NCBI GenBank assembly: GCA_965207065.1
Contig: OZ242260.1
Span: 3,776,001-3,840,000 of the forward strand
Reading direction: 5' to 3'
DNA from: a bacterium
GTDB lineage: Bacteria > UBA8248
Length of the DNA: 64,000 nucleotides
A model generated the notes under the pieces. The model saw only the letters and a list, made by a program, of their open reading frames with translations. It was not told where the DNA came from and ran no database searches. Shown here one piece after another: positions 297 through 28,206 of the stretch (within the stretch, counting starts at the first letter, position 1; the number at the start of each line of letters is the position of its first letter). The position numbers and the translations under genes were made by a program.

Positions 297-1334
297 ACGA
301 TGCGTTCAAATCCTTTTTCGCCTTGGCCGGGCAGGACAAACGCGATGTGTTCGAAGCGGCGGCGAGTCGTCTCGGCACGTTGCCCGGTTACGCAGAAAAG
401 GATTTCTGGGTCTGTTTCGTTCTAGATGCGCTCTACAACGGGTTGCCTGGCGGGCACCCAAAACTGCTTTTCAAGGGCGGAACGTCCCTCTCCAAGGCAT
501 TCGGTCTGATCGAGCGGTTCTCCGAGGAGATCGATCTGGTCGTCTATCGTGACGACCTGGGTTTCGAAGGCCACCGGGACCCGACGATTGGAGGAAACCT
601 CTCCGGCAAGAAACGGAACGCTCTCTTCAGAGAGCTCACGAAAGCTTGCAGCGACTACGTTCTGGGAAATCTAAACGGCGCTGACGGGTTTGATTGACGG
701 GGTTGTGGCGGAGTGCCGCGTCCTGCCGGATGAGGATGACGCCAGCCGCCAGACGCTATTTGTCGAATACCCCACCCTGTTCCCAGGCGGTACAGTTTCC
801 TATGTGTCCCAGCGTGTGAAGATCGAGGCGGGGGCGAGATCCGCGCTGGACCCGAACCTGATCTGCACGGTCAGTCCGTATATCTCCGCCGAACTACCCG
901 ACCGGACCTTTGAAGTGGAAGGAATCAGAACCCTCGCGCCGGAGCGCACTTATTGGGAGAAGCTCCTGATCCTGCATGGTCTGCACTACGGGTACGAAAA
1001 TGGAAACCGCCTACCAGCCGACAGAGACTTGATCTCACGCCATTACTACGATGCCGCGATGATTACTGCGACCGAAACCGGCAGGCATGCACTCTCGAAC
1101 ACTGATCTGCTTGGCGCAGTCCGGGAGCATAATCTCATCGCTTTTCGGCAAGCCTGGAAACGGTTCGATAAAGCCGTCCCCGGTTCGGTGCGATTGACGC
1201 CTCAACCGGAACTGCGCTCGGTGATTGAAAGGGACTACGGGGCCATGCAGGGCATGATCCTTGGCAGTGTTCGGGAATTCGGATGGATTATGGAGCAGCT
1301 TCAACGAGCCGAAGAAACAATCAATCGAGACTAA
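293..1334 (+). pseudogene. AbiEii/AbiGii nucleotidyltransferase toxin, frameshifted near 671-676
   Basis: EKDFWVC and FKGGTSLSKAFGLIERFSEEIDL in ORF 293..697; KIEAGARS, ERTYWEK and SRHYYD in ORF 690..1334; frames join at ctaaacggcg. Confidence 0.85.
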
Positions 1335-1442
1335 TCCGGCGACTTGTTGCCTGCTCGGTGGGGTGTGGACCGATGCGTCAGGAATCACGGGAATATGGTT
1401 TTTAGAAGCACTCCGTGATTAGCCCCTGCGCCCCTCCGCAAA

Positions 1443-1468
1443 GGACAACCACGGGGGGTTGTCCCTAC
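1443..1468. repeat. GTAG-family REP-like palindrome
   Basis: ggacaacc-acgggg-ggttgtcc followed by ctac; relatives throughout the window. Confidence 0.8.
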
Positions 1469-1536
1469 AAAATCATCACAAGCCCACGTTTCCAATCGAG
1501 TTCGCCCGAAACCCCGCTCATCACCTCCGAGACATC

Positions 1537-1628
1537 TAAATATCCCACTTAAATGACATAATAGCCTTAATATCCCCTTTATATCTCTTATTATTGCAGT
1601 TATTATCAATTTATTTCTTTAATATCTT
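1537..1628 (+). promoter_or_regulatory. AT-rich block with repeated ATATC motifs upstream of the XRE gene (putative promoter/operators)
   Basis: TATC at 1541, 1571, 1582 and 1623 in a very AT-rich tract. Confidence 0.45.
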
Positions 1629-1696
1629 ATATTATATGGTGTATTATGGATCCCGGATACAGAGACCAACAACTTTTGATTGTGAGGTTCATTAAA

Positions 1697-2659
1697 ATGA
1701 GAATTCACCCCGAAACACTGAGAAAGCTGCGCAAGGCGCGTGGATGGAGCCAGCAGGAACTGGCCGAGAAAGCGAAGATCGAAAAGAAGACAATCGGCCG
1801 CCTCGAGAGCGAAAACGGGGGCGAAGCAAGGGAATCCACCGCCCGGTTGCTCGCTTCCGCCTTGAAACTGGGGAGTCCCCGGATTCTGGCCCAAGGCCCC
1901 GAATCAGATGCGGTGCGGGAGGAAGTATCCCGGATCAACTTCGATTCCGGCGGTTCAGGCCCCAGGGTCCACCTCGACAGCGAAACCGCCCTCGCCTACG
2001 ACCTGGTGGAGGAGCGCTACGGGGTGGACATGCACCGGCTCATCGAAGAGGCGCCCACCCTCTTTACCCTGCTTGCGGAGGCGTGCCTCGCCGAGCGCCG
2101 CCGCCGGGTCGGTGAGGCGAAAGCGGCTTTGGAGGAGTTCAACCGCGCCCTGCCCGAGCATCTGGCAGAATCCGGGTGGACGTATAAGGAGGAGGAAGAA
2201 TCCATCGAGAAGCGCGACCTGTTCCGCCACCCCGGTGACCTCGAATGGGACGACCCCCGCTGGGAGGAATACAGGAAAGACGGGAACCCCTTCGCCAATT
2301 TCCTGAAAAAGTTGGCGAATAACATCAAAGCCGACAACGGAGCACTCGACCCCGCCGACGTCGGATTCGACCCCGATATGGTTTGCCGGGGCTATCTTTT
2401 CCCCGAACACCGCGCGCGACTGACCGGCGACTCACGGCGCGCCGAGTGGGCTCTTTCCCACGGATATGCGCGTCTCGGCCAGATACCCAAGCGCCTGCGC
2501 GGCGAAGGCGAGCAGGTCGCCCGCGAGCGCACCGGGTGGCTCGAAGCGCAGATCACCGACGATGAGTGGGCCGAATGCGAGGAGATGATGGCCGCCGCCG
2601 AGAGACTCGGGAAAATGCTGACGGGCGAAACCGACCCCGACGGGGAACCAGGCGAATAG
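1697..2659 (+). CDS. XRE-family helix-turn-helix protein with large uncharacterised C-terminal domain
   Basis: LRKLRKARGWSQQELAEKAKIEKKTIGRLE; ATG 1697 preceded by GAGG. Confidence 0.85.
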   Translation: MRIHPETLRKLRKARGWSQQELAEKAKIEKKTIGRLESENGGEARESTARLLASALKLGSPRILAQGPESDAVREEVSRINFDSGGSGPRVHLDSETALAYDLVEERYGVDMHRLIEEAPTLFTLLAEACLAERRRRVGEAKAALEEFNRALPEHLAESGWTYKEEEESIEKRDLFRHPGDLEWDDPRWEEYRKDGNPFANFLKKLANNIKADNGALDPADVGFDPDMVCRGYLFPEHRARLTGDSRRAEWALSHGYARLGQIPKRLRGEGEQVARERTGWLEAQITDDEWAECEEMMAAAERLGKMLTGETDPDGEPGE

Positions 2660-2732
2660 GGAACCGGAGAGTTTCTATCTCCGGCATGGGACGGGGCAAA
2701 ACCGAGACGACGGACAGAGGAGAAGTAATAAC

Positions 2733-3740
2733 ATGAACGCCGAATGTTTGATTCAGTGGAACCGCCTCAAAAAAGAAGCCGCCGGGGATTTTCCACTGGA
2801 AAAACTCGAAGGCTGTATAGGAGAATACCTGCGCGAAAACCCCCAAAAAGGGGAGAACAACGCACGCACCGCACTGAGGTCCATCAGAGAGGCCCTCGGG
2901 TGCAGGGAACACGAAGACGAGGCCGTCAGGCACAAGGCCGGTAAACTCCTCAAGAGTTGCCGCCATTCCTTCGATGAGGTCTGCAAGAATGCAGGCCATT
3001 TCAGAAAGGCATTGACCGAGGCCAGGGAGAGGAATGCCGAAGAAAAAGCCAGCCCAAGAGTCATCCCTCTCGGCGGCGGGTTCCGTCTCGAAGAAGTGCT
3101 CTCCATCAAGATGCTCATGACAATCGGAAAGACTCTCGAACTCTGCGTCGCCAAGCGCGAGGATGCACGAAGTTATTGGAAGGAGGCCGAGTCCGGCGAA
3201 TCCGGGCTGTGGCTGCTCCTGAAGGGAGAGGAGCGATTCGCCCTGCTGAAAATCGACCTGGAGGAGAATAAGGTGGGGGAATTCTCCGCTCACGACAACG
3301 ACGACCCCATAATCTCATTCGAGCTGGCCATGGAAATTCTCGAGAAGCTCGGCGTCACCGCCGATGATGAGACTTCATTCGCCCGCGTCGGCGCATTCGG
3401 CAGGTTCAAGTGTGGTCGGCCCGAGGGCGAACCCGTCCGCGTCGGTGAGCAGGAAATGTGGGTCTGGCTGTATGAGGACGAACTCATCGTGGGGATGGAT
3501 GAACATGCCGACGGGAAACTCTTCTGGTCCCGCTTCGAACTCAAGCAGAAGAAATATAATCCATTCGAAGACCCCAGGAGTCCCTGGGACCTCTTCAGCC
3601 GGGAGGAGTGGGAGGAGAATACCGGTAACCACCTCAGCATGGGGATGCTCTTCGAGATCGTCCGGCGTAATCCCCATGTCCTGGAAAGACTCCGCTCCCC
3701 CGTCATCGCCGAACCGGCTCTCGCCAGGAAAGCCGCCTGA
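2733..3740 (+). CDS. Hypothetical protein with PcfJ-like central region
   Basis: 335 aa, GAGGAG RBS; LMTIGKTLELCV...SYW..AESG...LWLL...FALLKID...EFSAHDN resembles the PcfJ pattern (weak). Confidence 0.6.
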   Translation: MNAECLIQWNRLKKEAAGDFPLEKLEGCIGEYLRENPQKGENNARTALRSIREALGCREHEDEAVRHKAGKLLKSCRHSFDEVCKNAGHFRKALTEARERNAEEKASPRVIPLGGGFRLEEVLSIKMLMTIGKTLELCVAKREDARSYWKEAESGESGLWLLLKGEERFALLKIDLEENKVGEFSAHDNDDPIISFELAMEILEKLGVTADDETSFARVGAFGRFKCGRPEGEPVRVGEQEMWVWLYEDELIVGMDEHADGKLFWSRFELKQKKYNPFEDPRSPWDLFSREEWEENTGNHLSMGMLFEIVRRNPHVLERLRSPVIAEPALARKAA

Positions 3741-3909
3741 GCGCGCCCGTTCCAGTTCGACCCGTCACAGAATCGTCCCCTCACCATTCGACGGCGCCAG
3801 ACAATCTCCACCCTTCCCGGCTCCGGATTCCCTCCCGGTCGTAGCCGGACCCCGCCGGAATGACGGCTGTCATCGAACCCTTGGAAGCCGGCGGCATACC
3901 CTTCCTCTC

Positions 3910-4230
3910 GGGGCTGTTGAAAAAGTCCGATGAAGGAGGAATGACGATTGTAGGGACAACCCCTCCTCGGGGTTGTCCTGCCCCTCCTCGGGGTTGTCCA
4001 TTTGCAGGATGTTTACAATCAGGACAGGCACGGAGGCCTGTCCCTACGGGGTCGTCGCGTCGCTGTGCGGGCGTGATTGGTCGTGTAGGTAGCGCTGCGC
4101 TACAGAAATGCGGCCCATGGTCGGCAGGCCTAAAAGGCAGGGTCGCATAATATGTCGGTCATACATGTCCGACCTACACCTTCACACCCGTCGAACCAAA
4201 CTGCTGAATCAAGGCTTTTTCAACAGCCCC
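3910..4230. mobile_element. MITE with perfect 16-bp terminal inverted repeats carrying REP palindromes
   Basis: ggggctgttgaaaaag (3910) and ctttttcaacagcccc (ending 4230); ctc on both flanks; no transposase. Confidence 0.75.
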
Positions 4231-4395
4231 CTCACTCAGGACGGACCACGCACTTCCCCGCATTTATCGTCACGGGCATTTCGCGTCGATGGGGTATGCT
4301 GGAGAGGCCGCCCGTCGGCCTGCGGTTTTTCAGGCGGCGCGAATCGCGGGAATCGGGCCACCGCTCGGGTGAGGCGCGGGTGGCGCAAAATGCAA

Positions 4396-4465
4396 ATAAT
4401 AATTGCCGAAAATATGGATAAATTCAGATAAATTCACGGGGTTTTTCGATAAAAAAAGATAAATT
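4396..4465 (-). promoter_or_regulatory. AT-rich block with four phased GATAAA repeats
   Basis: GATAAA at 4417, 4427, 4448 and 4458. Confidence 0.45.
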
Positions 4466-4561
4466 ACTTTCCTGGGATGGGACGCCGCGGAATCCGGGCG
4501 CAGGGGAATTCTGCCATGGCCCGCGCCTTCTGCAATGACGGCAATTGCGCGGAATTGCGGG

Positions 4562-5419
4562 CTAGCGCAGAGACGTCACCAGAATCACCCCCGCCACCGT
4601 GACGAGCACCCCCAGAACGATGCGCGGGGTGATTTTCTCGCGCTTCCCCAGTATCAAGGGCGCCAGCACGAGCATGAACAGCGGCACCGTCGCCACCAGG
4701 GGCGTGACGCGCGAGACTTCTCCTAAGCTCAGGGCGGCCATCAGGCATAACTGGGCGGCGGCCATCGCAAGACCCGCCAGGATGAAGTTGCCGAGCGAGG
4801 CCTTGTTGAACACGAACGGACTCCACCCGGTACTCGCCTTCAGGATCAGCGGGCCCAGGGCGCATGCCGAGACGGATTGCAGAAGCCCTCCGAAAACAAG
4901 GGATTCCACGCCTCCGAGCCCCATTTTCCTAAACGTATGGGCGAGCCCCATAAAAGCCGCCGCGCTAATCGGCAACAGCAGCACCCGCCCTCTGGCAAGC
5001 GGACCTCCCCCGCTCGACATAATGTAAACGCCAGCCACGACCACGAGAATCCCCACCCACACGACGGCCGGCGGGCGTTCTCCCAGCACCAGAAAGGCCC
5101 AGAACGCCCCGAAAATGGGGTGGGTGTTCGAGACGGGACTCGTGGAGGCGACGCCGATTCTCTGAATCGAGCGAAACAGGAACATCAGGGACAGCGCGGG
5201 TGAGGATATCCCCGCCGCCAGGAAGGCGAGCCAGTAGACCGAAGGCGAAATGCGGGAGAAATCCACCGCCACCAGGCAGGAGGAGAAGAAGACAACCTGC
5301 ATGATGAGAACGACCAGGCTTCCCGTGTGGGGCGTGCTGCCGTCCAGCCCTCGCCTGGTCATGATGCTTGAGAGGGCGAAGAAGACAGCCGGGCTCAGGG
5401 CGACCAGTTCGAACGGCAT
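4562..5419 (-). CDS. DMT/EamA family transporter
   Basis: About 10 hydrophobic segments, duplicated EamA pattern (LVLGERP; LGKREKIT). Confidence 0.9.
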   Translation of the reverse strand: MPFELVALSPAVFFALSSIMTRRGLDGSTPHTGSLVVLIMQVVFFSSCLVAVDFSRISPSVYWLAFLAAGISSPALSLMFLFRSIQRIGVASTSPVSNTHPIFGAFWAFLVLGERPPAVVWVGILVVVAGVYIMSSGGGPLARGRVLLLPISAAAFMGLAHTFRKMGLGGVESLVFGGLLQSVSACALGPLILKASTGWSPFVFNKASLGNFILAGLAMAAAQLCLMAALSLGEVSRVTPLVATVPLFMLVLAPLILGKREKITPRIVLGVLVTVAGVILVTSLR

Positions 5420-24744: not shown

Positions 24745-25782
24745 ATGAATGATGCACCGAAAATCGGCATGGCCTTCATCGGTCTCGGCTGGTGGGGCGC
24801 CGTGCTCGCAGACGCCGCCCTCGCCTCCGGAAAAGTGAAGGTGACCGGCGGCTTCGCTCGCACGCCCTCTACCCGCGAAGAATTTATCGGGAAATACGGT
24901 GGGAAGAACTTCGCCTCCATCGACGAGGTGATGGCCGACTCCGAGACAGAGGCCGTCGTTATCGCCACGGCAAACTCCGTCCACAAGGAGATCGCAGTCG
25001 CCGCCGCGCGCGCGGGCAAGCACGTTCACCTGGAAAAACCGATGGCGCTCAGCGTCTCGGACGCGAAAGCGGTTGAGCAGGCGTGTAAAGACCACGGCGT
25101 GAAACTCCACATGGGGCAGAACTTCCGGCGCTGGCCGATGTTTCGCAAGGCGAAGGAAATCGTCGAAAGCGGAAATCTGGGGCTGGTGAACTACACGGTC
25201 GCCACGTTTTCCAATAACCACGGCTTCACCTCCGGCCCCAAGAGCATGCGGTGGGACGCCACGGAAAACCCGGGTGGGCCGCTCTACAGCTACACCATCC
25301 ACCTGGGCGACATTATGGAATATCTCTTCGGCGACGTGGAAGAGGTGAACGCCGCATGCGCCAAGGTGGGCGGCCCGAACCCCCAGGAAGACGCCGCCGC
25401 CGCCATCTTGCGCTTCAAGAGCGGGCTGATGGGCGTCATTTCGAGCAGTTATCTGGCTCCCTTCCACTTCGCCTTCGACGTTCAGGGCACCGAAGCGAAC
25501 CTGAGCCTTTCCACGACGGAAAACCCGACTCTCAAGCGGCCCATCGACCTGATGGGCGGTCTGGAAACAGAGACAGTGGAGCTCGACCATGATCTCGTAG
25601 AGGGGAGACTCCTCGCGAACCGCGAGCAGTTCGACGACCTGATCGGCGCGATCCGAGAGGACAGGGACCCGGAAGTCACCGGTCGCCACGGTGTGCGGGC
25701 GCTCGCCATCATGCGGGCGATTCTCAAGAGCAACGCAGAGAGACGGATTGTGACAATCGAGGAGATTCTGGAGTCCGACTAG
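24745..25782 (+). CDS. Gfo/Idh/MocA family oxidoreductase
   Basis: IGLGWWG, GKHVHLEKPMA, GGPL...IH. Confidence 0.92.
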   Translation: MNDAPKIGMAFIGLGWWGAVLADAALASGKVKVTGGFARTPSTREEFIGKYGGKNFASIDEVMADSETEAVVIATANSVHKEIAVAAARAGKHVHLEKPMALSVSDAKAVEQACKDHGVKLHMGQNFRRWPMFRKAKEIVESGNLGLVNYTVATFSNNHGFTSGPKSMRWDATENPGGPLYSYTIHLGDIMEYLFGDVEEVNAACAKVGGPNPQEDAAAAILRFKSGLMGVISSSYLAPFHFAFDVQGTEANLSLSTTENPTLKRPIDLMGGLETETVELDHDLVEGRLLANREQFDDLIGAIREDRDPEVTGRHGVRALAIMRAILKSNAERRIVTIEEILESD

Positions 25783-25926
25783 GCCCGAAACATGACTATC
25801 GCAAGATAGTCCTGATTCGCGTATAATTCTCACTCGTTAGCCCACCGCATCTCTGTGACTTGTTCCGCCCGGACTCGTTTCGGAAACGGCTTTCCCATGG
25901 GCAGGCGCCGCGATACACCGGATTTC

Positions 25927-26712
25927 ATGAGCTCTAACAAACTCCCGGCACTGGCATACAGACCCGCTGCCCAGGAGCGCGAACTCACCGGAAAACTCAT
26001 CGCTTCCACGAGCGCGGACGAGCGCGAAGCGCTGGGCCAGAAACTGCTCGACAACATTTGCCGCAGCCTCAAAATCCCCAGGACGCGCCTGCGCGTGTTC
26101 GAAAAGCGCCAACCCCACAAGCTGCGCGGCGGAAAACTCGCCTACAAGCTCTATGGCACCTATAACTGTGAAACCGCGGTGATCGAAATCGCCAACCTGA
26201 CTTCGGTTCGCAAGCAGGTTGTCGCGGGCAAGACGTTTCTCGATACCCTCATCCACGAACTCATGCACCACATCGACAGAAAATTTCTCCGAATTCCCTC
26301 CACGCCCCATAGCCCCGGCTTTTACAAACGCATCGAGGACCTCAAAACCAAACTCATGCGCATGAAGAGCGGGGAGCGGGTACCCCCGCAAGAAGCCGCC
26401 TGGGAGCGACCCAGAGACCTGACGGCGGCTCTCGAGGCGGCGGCCGCAAACGCCCGTGGGAAAAACGATAGTCAAGACCGGCAACAGACAAATGAGGCGA
26501 TCGCGGAGGATGTTCGGCCCGAAACGAGAAAATCCAGGTTGTCCCCACAGGATGAAACGGAATCCCTCTTTCCGGCGCCACCAGGTGAACCAAGCGCAGC
26601 GAAACCCCGGAAAAAACCACCACGCGCGCGCGAAGGAGTGAGCACGCCTCCGAAAAATCCCCAAAAAGTCGCTTCGGGAGAGAAAGAACCGCAGCTGTCG
26701 TTCGATTATTAA
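25927..26712 (+). CDS. SprT-like HExxH zinc metalloprotease domain with low-complexity tail ending QLSFDY
   Basis: TLIHELMHH...HSPGFY; Pro/Lys/Glu-rich C-terminal half; start uncertain (25855, 25897 or 25927). Confidence 0.7.
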   Translation: MSSNKLPALAYRPAAQERELTGKLIASTSADEREALGQKLLDNICRSLKIPRTRLRVFEKRQPHKLRGGKLAYKLYGTYNCETAVIEIANLTSVRKQVVAGKTFLDTLIHELMHHIDRKFLRIPSTPHSPGFYKRIEDLKTKLMRMKSGERVPPQEAAWERPRDLTAALEAAAANARGKNDSQDRQQTNEAIAEDVRPETRKSRLSPQDETESLFPAPPGEPSAAKPRKKPPRAREGVSTPPKNPQKVASGEKEPQLSFDY

Positions 26713-26910
26713 TTTTCTACAATCTACTTTAGATAAACAATATTAAAACTTGAAATAAAAAGTGAAAAAAACTCAAGAAATCTACCCTTCAAGGACCGTC
26801 TTTCGTTCCCACGTTCGGGCGGTTGTGTTTCACTCTGCGATTGGGTAAACAAAGGGACTGGGCATACGCCTTCATACAAACAAACGAATATCGCAGAGGA
26901 GTTTCCTTCT

Positions 26911-27603
26911 ATGAGACCGGCTAACGATTCCGTCCCGAAACCCTGGGGACCGCTGGCGGGTTTTTGGTCCTGGCAATACCTGAACCTGTGGAAGACCATC
27001 AAACTCGTCACGAGCAAACGGGTCAAGAGTTTTTATGAAAAATTTCCGAACGTCCTTCCCCCCGGCGCCGATTTCCCCGACTTCGAACTCAAAGACATTC
27101 AAGGAAACAGCCACCGCATGTCGGACTATCTGGGCAAGAAATACGTGGTGATGACCACGGGGGCCATCACGTGACCGCCATACAGGCGGCAGGTGCCGTT
27201 TTATGAAGAGTTGCAGGAGAAATACGCGGACCGCGACGTAGTGGTCTTCAATCTCTACGTGAGGGAACCCCACGCAGGCGAGCGCGGATTCCCCGAGATC
27301 AGAAACCATGAATCCTACGAGCACAAGCGGAGCTACGCGCAAGAGCTGGCCGATATCAAGAACATGGAAACCAACATCCTCGTCGACGAGATGGACCAGA
27401 AGGTCCACGCCATGCTCGGAGACCTGCCGAACACCATCTGGCTCATCGGCAAGGACGGGAAAGTGGCTTACAAATGCACCTGGTCGAACGCCGAACACGT
27501 GGATGAATATCTGGCCCGGATGGTGAACGAAGACCCCGCATTCGAGGGAATGCCAAGAATCGAGCAAACCATCTTCACCGCTCGCGCGAGCACCGCGATC
27601 TAG
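26911..27603 (+). CDS. Deiodinase-like thioredoxin-fold selenoprotein (UGA 27172-27174 read as Sec88; 230 aa)
   Basis: ORFs 26911..27174 and 27193..27603 are in one frame; read-through gives GADFPDFEL...TGAIT-U-PPY...LYVREPH...LVDEMD...GDLPN...GKVAY. Confidence 0.88.
27185..27200 (+). promoter_or_regulatory. Putative bacterial SECIS hairpin
   Basis: GGCGGC-AGGT-GCCGTT starting 11 nt after the UGA. Confidence 0.65.
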
Positions 27604-27621: not shown

Positions 27622-27652
27622 AGCGCCCCCTCGTGAGTGGGGGCGTTTTTTC
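27622..27652 (+). terminator. Intrinsic terminator after the selenoprotein gene
   Basis: cgccccc-tcgtgagt-gggggcg followed by a T-tract. Confidence 0.7.
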
Positions 27653-27681
27653 TGCATCACAAACCATGGAGGAATCGGGAC

Positions 27682-28206
27682 ATGGATGCGCCGACTATCA
27701 TCAAAGAGCGCCTCGAAGCCTACGGGATGAGGCTGAGAGAGGTTATGGAAGACGTCACCGATGAGGACTTGACCCTTCAACCCGGTCCGAACGACAACCC
27801 CATGGGCTGGCTCATCTGGCACATGACGCGCTTTGAGGACAGGACATTTTCGTTCCTCGGCGGAACGCAGGAGCTTTGGATAGAGGGGAAATGGCACGAG
27901 CGCTTCAGCATGGAGCCCGACCCCGAATGCACCGGCGTGGGCTTCACGCTCGAACAGGTTCTCGCGCTTGAAGTCAGCAAGGACGCCCTGATGGGTTATT
28001 TCGAAGCGGCGAGAGAGAAGACTCTCGCCTGCCTCTCAAGTCTGAGCGCGGCGGACTTGGATCGGGAAGAAGTCGACTTCGCCAGCAAGAAGCCCATGAA
28101 ACTCGGACTGGTGCTGGGCAGGTACTTGGGCGATCACATCTCCCACATCGGACAAATCTGCTATCTCAGGGGCCACATCGCAGGCTGGGGGCGATACCCC
28201 ACATAG
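27682..28206 (+). CDS. DinB family protein
   Basis: NPMGWLIWHM...ED, HISHIGQICYLRG; GGAGG RBS. Confidence 0.9.
   Translation: MDAPTIIKERLEAYGMRLREVMEDVTDEDLTLQPGPNDNPMGWLIWHMTRFEDRTFSFLGGTQELWIEGKWHERFSMEPDPECTGVGFTLEQVLALEVSKDALMGYFEAAREKTLACLSSLSAADLDREEVDFASKKPMKLGLVLGRYLGDHISHIGQICYLRGHIAGWGRYPT

Follow-up and report, generated by a model that had tools for sequence, protein, structure and literature searches.

Eukaryotes are known to repair DNA-protein crosslinks by proteolysis, with Wss1 and SPRTN as the proteases, whereas for bacteria the accounts given in PMC6945406 and PMC9240642 describe excision repair and recombination only. According to these accounts, the loss of cytosolic ATP-dependent proteases leaves the survival of bacteria exposed to formaldehyde or 5-azacytidine unchanged. 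SPRTN is bound to the eukaryotic sliding clamp PCNA through a PCNA-interacting peptide (PIP) box at residues 325-332 (PMC9240642, in the part that treats this protein). Here we describe a gene from a UBA8248 bacterium, lying on the + strand at 25897-26712 of a 64,000-nucleotide stretch of DNA (the window; all positions are counted from its first letter, unless a genome or locus is named), whose product combines a zincin domain of SprT/Wss1-like type with a C-terminal peptide that resembles the binding motif of the bacterial sliding clamp, DnaN. We propose that it is a DNA-associated SprT/Wss1-type zinc endopeptidase, tethered to the clamp by a flexible leash and clearing proteins that block polymerases, a reading to which we give an even chance. 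The argument is made in silico, from the catalytic motif, a Wss1/SPRTN-like predicted fold, the conservation and recurrence of the terminal motif, and docking in the clamp cleft.

To our knowledge, the described partners of the bacterial clamp are polymerases, ligases, and mismatch-repair or initiation-control proteins. The motif by which the clamp is bound also has a hexapeptide form, QLxLxL. For the pentapeptide the consensus is QL(D/S)LF, with variation tolerated and the motif usually placed in flexible terminal regions, as set out in the relevant part of PMC6511837. A literature search, with most subscription journals outside its scope, returned neither a bacterial clamp-binding peptidase nor a bacterial crosslink protease of the SprT/Wss1 type.

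An earlier note on this DNA had delimited the gene as an open frame at 25927-26712, containing HELMH, HSPGF and a terminal EPQLSFDY. All of these can be read in the translated sequence, and the frame runs for 261 codons plus a stop codon, uninterrupted by other stops. The start given there is 30 nt too far downstream. Thirty-four of the 35 aligned homologues begin 10 residues upstream of the Met encoded at 25927, with an N-terminal peptide of the form M[GAR][RK][RH]R[DN]TPDF, and this MGRRRDTPDF-type peptide is more than 90% conserved among them; the window has the homologue-type ATG at 25897, and an ATGGGC start is common to all of the 19 related loci that were read upstream. Because the homologues begin 10 residues earlier and the window shares their ATG, the gene most likely starts at 25897, with the codon at 25927 specifying Met11. 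In the full-length AlphaFold2 model the 10 added residues give rise to a helix at 8-15 (block pLDDT, the predicted local distance difference test score, of 80). Residues are numbered here by the 261-residue frame from 25927 (P0001), unless stated otherwise; adding 10 gives the numbering of the 271-residue protein. The features of the locus are collected in Table 1.

Table 1. Features of the putative protease gene and its leader (window positions)
Feature	Position	Strand	Residues, basis and remarks
Re-annotated coding sequence	25897..26712	+	271 aa + stop; homologue starts, shared ATG
SprT/Wss1-like zincin (metalloprotease) domain	25954..26367	+	Residues 20-157 of the 271-aa protein; AlphaFold2 models, structural matches
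HELMH zinc-binding/catalytic motif	26254..26268	+	H110, E111, H114 (P0001) = H120, E121, H124 (271-aa protein); sequence
HSPGF, with H128 the likely third zinc ligand	26308..26322	+	P0001 128-132; 14 residues past the second His; role inferred
Predicted amphipathic helix after the domain	26419..26475	+	P0001 165-183; follows invariant W159 and P162
Disordered Pro/Lys/Arg/Glu-rich linker ('leash')	26476..26685	+	P0001 184-253; pLDDT 29-36, indel-rich alignment
Second conserved tail island, RKPRWTP	26527..26547	+	P0001 ~201-207; window copy diverged to RKSRLSP
C-terminal beta-clamp-binding-like motif QLSFDY	26692..26709	+	QLSFDF in most homologues
Conserved leader: putative promoter -10 and 5' untranslated region	25822..25896	+	TATAAT at 25822-25827; alignment of 19 related loci

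The zincin signature, an HExxH motif with a downstream His, is intact in the window protein and conserved in its family. In an alignment of 113 family members H110, E111, H114, D117, F132 and R135 are invariant, and all six are present here, while H115, H128 and G131 are conserved in at least 90% of the members. The pattern among the family representatives returned by our search (described below) is HE..HH.D, a loop of 8-16 residues, and [ST].H[ST].GF[YF].R. The N-terminal domain is basic, as the earlier note had described it, with an isoelectric point (pI) of 10.25 and 32 Lys and Arg residues against 16 Asp and Glu over its 157 residues (1-157). This charge is a property of the whole family, the pI exceeding 9 in the domains of 119 of 130 members, with a median net charge of +9 (a crude genomic background for pI > 9 is 157/400), and it would fit contact with DNA.

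Two AlphaFold2 models were obtained, one from 36 close homologues and the other from 78 more diverse ones. Both give the compact domain with confidence (pLDDT mostly >90 in the first, 94-99 in the second), and in both it comprises N-terminal helices, a small β-sheet, the HExxH helix and one more helix. When the first model was compared with 48,161 chains by VIA, the best matches were SPRTN (6mdx; Z 8.2, root-mean-square deviation (rmsd) 3.4 over 109 aligned residues) and two structures of Wss1 (5xbn, Z 8.1; 5ln5, Z 7.8). The same three structures head the matches of the second model, as Wss1 5xbn (Z 8.3, rmsd 3.3, 104 aligned), SPRTN 6mdx (Z 7.5) and Wss1 5ln5 (Z 7.1). Over both models the Wss1 and SPRTN matches have rmsd values of 3.2-3.4 for 95-110 aligned residues, a Z of about 8 being a common best score. 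Foldseek likewise places Wss1 in the top four to five positions for both models, with best E-values of 9.6e-4 and 8e-3, that is, below 1e-3 once.

Comparisons with curated families point the same way at low scores. The only Pfam match of the window protein is to WLM (PF08325), over residues 97-172, with E 0.043 and 14.3 bits against a gathering threshold of 26; the 271-residue form has no Pfam match at E ≤ 0.01. The protein is unmatched by Pfam SprT-like (PF10263; threshold 25.6 bits), NCBIfam gives no family for it, annotation of the PADLOC type adds nothing of use, and PHROGs yields only a chance-level match of 14.8 bits to a giant virion RNA polymerase family. Among the 113 family members, 31 match Pfam SprT-like at E ≤ 0.01 (best 6.5e-5), 14 match WLM (best 7.5e-5) and seven match Peptidase_M76, and a profile made from all of them finds a single sequence in the PDB, Schizosaccharomyces pombe Wss1 (5jig), at E 0.009. 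Because these weak lines from Pfam, the PDB profile and two fold searches on two models all agree, we regard the assignment of the domain as SprT/Wss1-like as reasonable. The SprT/WLM-like fold expected by the earlier note is thus the one to which both models are predicted to be closest, at middling scores. Since the window protein falls below the thresholds of both Pfam WLM and SprT-like, it is filed under neither, and we treat it as an unnamed branch of the SprT/WLM clan.

Is the terminal peptide of this protein a genuine clamp-binding motif? The earlier note had allowed that so short a motif could be due to chance, a caution that its conservation and recurrence now largely remove. QLSFDY stands at the extreme C-terminus, past a stretch with pLDDT values of 29-36, which is the flexible-end placement of QL(D/S)LF and QLxLxL-type motifs. 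In an alignment of 36 rows the commonest residue has a frequency of 0.97 at Q256, 0.94 at L257, 0.83 at F259 and 0.92 (as F) at the last position, and the mean of this frequency is 0.84 over the last eight columns, compared with 0.56 in the remainder of the tail and 0.85 in the domain. The terminal QL[STAG]FDF is thus retained by the close homologues despite a disordered and variable tail. Defined strictly, as QL.[LF]F or QL.[LF].[LF] in the last 25 residues, the motif is present in 46 of 56 close homologues (E ≤ 1e-37), and in 49 of them when M at position 2 or a final Y is also admitted; the seven that do not have it comprise four truncated proteins (168-201 aa), two frameshifted ones and one marked 'partial' at its source. 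Tails of the Tectomicrobia type are otherwise unalignable, yet they keep QLALAL, QLTLAF, QLALAF, QLTLDF or QLPLGL, sometimes with a few extra residues.

The motif also recurs more widely in the family. A HMMER search returned 484 representatives (at 50% identity) with E ≤ 0.001, 132 of them with E ≤ 1e-10; the best 150 were used, and six fragments without the domain pattern were dropped, leaving 144. Of these best representatives, 59 have tails of at least 20 residues, and 14 of the 59 bear the strict motif within 25 residues of the end, whereas 2000 composition-preserving shuffles of the same tails average 0.09 and never exceed 2. It occurs further upstream in one tail only, and in none of the 144 domain parts. 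The variants include QLSLF (four times), QLLLF and the hexapeptides QLELPL, QLTLPF, QLMLPF and QLSLNF. On a FastTree tree of the domain alone (142 rows, eight of the 150 being omitted for lack of the pattern or of most of the domain), the motif needs six changes, and well-supported branches force at least three separate groups; the groups are a Nitrospinota/Tectomicrobia clade, a pair with QL/PMLPF, and a clade of 'RESSL'-type proteins. Close homologues whose tails have diverged thus keep the motif, which is the check put forward by the earlier note, and it recurs in separate groups of the wider family. In the genome of the window, 8 of 13,013 six-frame open reading frames (ORFs) of at least 100 aa have the strict motif within their final 14 residues, all of them apparently spurious or unidentified.

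A complex with the clamp, also put forward by the earlier note, was modelled with the DnaN of the same genome, which has one dnaN gene, encoding 385 aa. DnaN (with a 45-sequence alignment) and residues 217-261 of the protease (with a 36-row alignment) gave a complex score of 0.70 (runs of 0.70, 0.71 and 0.67), while the best of three controls scored 0.00; 58 of 80 solved complexes attain the mark for this score, as do 2 of 110 mismatched pairs, counts that are rough here given the use of custom alignments. The runs share at least 53% of their contacts, and the pLDDT of the partner is at least 42. On the protease side the confident contacts come from residues 254-261 (EPQLSFDY) only. On the clamp they involve residues 173, 175-176, 178, 263-264, 267-268, 298, 339, 363, 365 and 381-384, which are mostly invariant among the 45 DnaN sequences (T173, G175, H176, L178, P263, V268, N339 and M381-R384), and which we equate with the cleft of the Escherichia coli clamp that binds peptides between its domains II and III. 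The peptide is thus predicted to dock in the cleft, and together conservation, recurrence and modelling make tethering of the protease to the clamp well supported in silico.

These features suggest how the protein might act. The basic N-terminal domain, with its HExxH motif and distal His, would be the protease. The C-terminal QLSFD[FY] peptide would fill one of the hydrophobic clefts that the DnaN dimer has between domains II and III, and the 70-110 or so disordered residues that precede it would form a leash, allowing the protease domain to range over the DNA near the clamp. Clamps at replication forks, or left behind on DNA, would then carry the protease to proteins that block polymerases, above all to those covalently trapped on the DNA; with these cut down, replication, translesion synthesis or excision repair could proceed. 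Clamp binding, protease activity, DNA dependence and a crosslink substrate are what we infer for the window protein, and a role in DNA-protein-crosslink repair is plausible. Of the replisome-tethered SPRTN analogue imagined in the earlier note, the architecture, an SprT/WLM-like protease on a clamp-binding tail, is thus supported by prediction, and the repair role stays a proposal. On a broader scale, it is possible, if somewhat short of an even chance, that bacteria have their own replication-coupled DNA-protein-crosslink protease, with a widespread SprT/Wss1-like family having repeatedly gained disordered tails with a clamp-binding peptide at the tip, in convergence with SPRTN and PCNA.

Several observations weigh against the proposal of a clamp-tethered crosslink protease. 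The window protein lies below the threshold of every curated family, in Pfam and NCBIfam alike, and its fold scores are middling, a Z of 7-8 being a typical best value even for models without any clear relative; the lesser fold matches, at Z 4.7-7.5, include minigluzincins, YbeY-type RNases (Z 5.2-7.5), PprI/IrrE, CapP and ArdC. The motif pattern was written after the sequences had been seen, guided by the known consensus, and the window copy, ending in Y, lies outside its strict form. The pass of the complex model may reflect likeness to a known mode of binding and not this particular pair, as clamp-peptide complexes have already been solved. No dedicated DNA-binding domain was found by Pfam or NCBIfam, and the models show one helix and disorder past the zincin domain. 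Most of the family has neither tail nor motif (95 of the 142 tree rows, and most of the best 80 genomic loci described below), and the core function of the zincin family would therefore be independent of the clamp. Across 80 distant loci, from which 734 ORFs were clustered, there is no conserved repair-gene neighbour. No LexA-type operator was recognised upstream in a by-eye comparison with the regions upstream of lexA, recA and the Y-family polymerase genes. Coverage in RNA libraries is limited to low-depth contigs from a relative (4-6x, 90-99% alike) in one library, X18, where they cover 25811-25941 and 26079-26266; the other three of the four RNA-library runs cover the flanking genes only, and contigs from such libraries are not in themselves proof of transcription.

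What else could a zincin with such a tail be? The protein might be a clamp-tethered regulatory protease, with specific clamp clients or replisome parts as substrates (translesion polymerases, initiation regulators or the clamp itself), which it would clear or exchange. All of the evidence for clamp binding fits this equally well, a leash of ~70-110 residues would put the active site beside other partners bound in the clefts, and the weaker fold matches (Z 5.5-6.2) include the zincins IrrE/PprI and CapP, whose cleavage of specific regulators follows DNA damage or phage signals. The folds nearest to it, however, belong to Wss1 and SPRTN, which are promiscuous and DNA-dependent, and not to IrrE, the basic charge of the family fits DNA contact, and no candidate substrate or partner gene is conserved alongside; we consider this explanation unlikely. 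Less probable again is a zincin unrelated to replication, such as a general or stress peptidase, whose C-terminal peptide binds another partner or marks the protein for degradation or localisation. It would agree with the tail-less majority of the family, with the nine of 80 loci in which the domain is fused instead to DinB_2 (two of them by Pfam), and with the DinB_2/mycothiol-S-transferase-like and peroxiredoxin-like genes just downstream, which hint at thiol or electrophile stress. It does not explain why the motif fits the clamp consensus in several independent variants, the exact QLSLF included, nor the predicted docking in the clamp cleft with controls that score zero, and the DinB_2 gene of the window is not specifically related to the fused domains (E 0.84).

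The two remaining explanations carry little weight with us. A non-protease hydrolase of zincin fold that is brought to the clamp, such as a metallo-RNase like YbeY or some other enzyme acting on nucleic acids, would account for the fold matches to the YbeY family (1oz9, Z 6.3-7.5; 7y7o, Z 5.4-6.3; 1xm5, Z 5.2-6.1), but the top three fold matches and all of the weak Pfam matches (SprT-like, WLM and M76) are to peptidases, and an invariant HExxH with its catalytic Glu is typical of zincin peptidases; we judge it improbable. That QLSFDY is a chance resemblance without any binding function we find harder still to credit, short and degenerate as the motif is and off consensus as the window copy is at its last position, given its retention by 49 of the 56 close homologues in the midst of a varying tail and its recurrence in distant clades far above what shuffling produces.

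The tail itself is more structured than was supposed. The earlier note had described about 120 aa of low complexity; we find a tail of about 114 aa (148-261), which is disordered over 184-253 and is not uniformly of low complexity. W159, P162 and A168 are invariant in 36 homologues, the first two lying in a poorly predicted linker between the domain and the tail helix. The helix spans 165-183 in the first model and 175-192 in the numbering of the second, with block pLDDT values of 67-83. Within the leash, the columns of the RKPRWTP island have commonest-residue frequencies of 0.92, 0.56, 0.83, 0.86, 0.75, 0.61 and 0.81 in the 36 aligned homologues, and the island is also present in Tectomicrobia-type homologues, as RRPRWTP and RIPRWPR; no fitting known motif was found for it. 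For the same pairs of genomes the protease is 66-75% identical, against 92-97% for the oxidoreductase encoded upstream, and this faster divergence relative to the neighbouring genes fits a long disordered tail.

Upstream of the gene, 17 of the 19 aligned related loci retain the TATAAT, and from there to the ATG the sequence is conserved; a consensus scan found no -35 element, and hence no full sigma-70 site, at this position. A covarying hairpin in the 5' untranslated region was considered and rejected, the covariation term of the alignment fold being 0.01, with one pair showing a double change. A GCCCAT some 60 nt upstream is complementary to the ATGGGC of the start region, and pairing of the two could mask the start codon; no covariation supports any structure here. 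Elsewhere in the genome (G000:C1), at ~961000-962883, a gene for a Y-family polymerase directly follows lexA, with which it seems to form an operon. A second polymerase of this family, of 429 aa and encoded at 4351424-4352713 of the same contig, has QLELPL about 65 residues from its C-terminus, and the other Y-family polymerase of the genome has a QPLLF-like stretch near its C-terminus.

The protease gene is present in a single copy in the 4.48-Mb genome, and a genome-wide search found no canonical SprT above the cut-off. Within the phylum 37 of 51 genomes have it, that of the window among them; with the latter set aside, it is carried by 35 of 41 in the same family and by 21 of 22 in the same genus. 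It was not found in four genomes of ~2.1 Mb from one genus, nor in most other families among these 51. Beyond the phylum, a scan of species-representative genomes with an alignment of the 'RESSL'-type subfamily gave at least 593 loci, spanning Acidobacteriota, Myxococcota, Methylomirabilota, Gamma- and Betaproteobacteria, Gemmatimonadota and Nitrospirota, with Myxococcus and Corallococcus genomes among those that carry a homologue. The best 80 of these have mostly short tails of 13-33 residues, free of the motif. Five of the 80 end in QLSLF, QLGLF, QLELF, QLALPF or QLALF, four from the Polyangia group (L019, L034, L070, L079) and one from a 'Deltaproteobacteria' genome (L074), and L003 has the near miss QLELPG. 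Members of the family are named 'hypothetical protein', with one automatic 'WLM domain-containing', a cluster look-up of 10 representatives gave no function names, and the nearest ESM Atlas clusters are unnamed.

In nine of the 80 loci, all from Methylomirabilota/Rokubacteria (L018, L024, L025, L030, L044, L053, L055, L073, L077), the zincin domain is followed by a C-terminal domain of ~180 aa. It is DinB_2 by Pfam in L030 (E 1.9e-17) and L077 (E 5.9e-15), and was assigned as such in the other seven by shared C-terminal sequence. A functional link from this fusion to the DinB_2 gene of the window (27637-28206) was rejected on the absence of specific relatedness already noted. In the betaproteobacterial locus L046 (5971-7809) the zincin domain is in frame with ~450 residues that resemble a multi-pass membrane protein; the extended frame could be a real fusion, a missed stop or a frameshift.

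The gene is flanked by a Gfo/Idh/MocA oxidoreductase gene upstream and by the peroxiredoxin-like and DinB_2/mycothiol-S-transferase-like genes downstream, an order that is kept in the genus, where relatives so close say little. The only large cluster of neighbours in the 80 distant loci is an antisense ORF of the protease gene itself, in 24 loci. A reading as a mobile-element or anti-restriction (ArdC-like) protein was also set aside, as tblastn found no match in 50,697 phage and 72,556 plasmid records and ArdC is a weak fold match (Z 4.7-5.3). The downstream gene of peroxiredoxin/thioredoxin fold (26911-27603, + strand), which has a weak AhpC/TSA match, contains one in-frame TGA at 27172-27174 (TTGAIT-TGA-PPY). 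All relatives that retain the gene show this split, a stable hairpin lies directly after the TGA, and the genome has a tRNA-SeC; the gene is probably that of a selenoprotein and not a broken one.

In two related loci (L104 of G030, at ~2600-4600, and L105 of G031, at ~1140-3130) PADLOC recognises a candidate defence system of two genes, a HEC-01A ATPase (E 4e-155) and HEC-01B (E 3.5e-67), directly downstream of the protease gene, and on the far side of this pair there is a diverged second copy of the last 44-56 codons of the protease. The site looks like an insertion hot spot at which the 3' end of the protease gene is duplicated or replaced. At the same spot in L106 (G025), positions 2332-3558 hold a 308-aa ORF without a PADLOC match, followed by a remnant of the last 32 codons of the protease, and G026 also has a second match to the protease tail. 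As a lead to habitat, several 'sponge metagenome' DNA runs share ~0.55 of the words sampled from 25600-27000.

Should the clamp-tethered crosslink protease prove to be real, its proteolytic pathway would be the missing branch of bacterial crosslink repair, and the enzyme would be the first peptidase among the clamp partners, as well as a clear example of how a protease on a clamp leash can evolve convergently. The family is both large and unannotated, and its natural variants, tail-less, with the clamp motif, or fused to DinB_2, offer ready comparisons.

Finally, how does this protein compare with the known systems? It resembles the metazoan DNA-dependent crosslink protease SPRTN (Spartan, DVC1; 6mdx) in having an N-terminal SprT-type HExxH zincin followed by a long disordered region with a clamp-binding peptide. 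SPRTN is among the top three fold matches of both models (Z 7.5-8.2, 109-110 residues aligned), and the distal third His follows the second by about 14-15 residues; in SPRTN this zinc ligand is H130. The window protein differs in being bacterial, with DnaN as its clamp and with a QLxLF-type peptide at the extreme C-terminus in place of a PIP box. It is about half the size, its sequence similarity is below all curated thresholds, and none was found in it of the zinc-binding or basic DNA-binding subdomain, the SHP box, UBZ, or the ubiquitin- and p97-binding elements of SPRTN; we know of no ubiquitin control in bacteria. Because the sequence similarity is so marginal, the shared architecture is probably convergent.

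Wss1, the WLM-domain crosslink protease of yeast (5xbn, 5ln5, 5jig; PF08325), gives the best Foldseek and VIA matches, and both proteins have a compact core of ~120-140 residues. The window protein has a longer loop between its second and third His, and the recruitment of Wss1 depends on Cdc48 and SUMO motifs instead of a clamp. E. coli SprT (YggI; PF10263) is a zincin of the same clan, and the 31 family members noted above match its Pfam family at E ≤ 0.01, but that protein has a C-terminal zinc ribbon, which the window protein does not, and the window protein itself is unmatched by PF10263. Like the partners of the bacterial clamp, including Pol IV, Pol II, UmuC, Hda and MutL, it carries a QL(D/S)LF-like peptide at a flexible end, predicted to occupy the same cleft.

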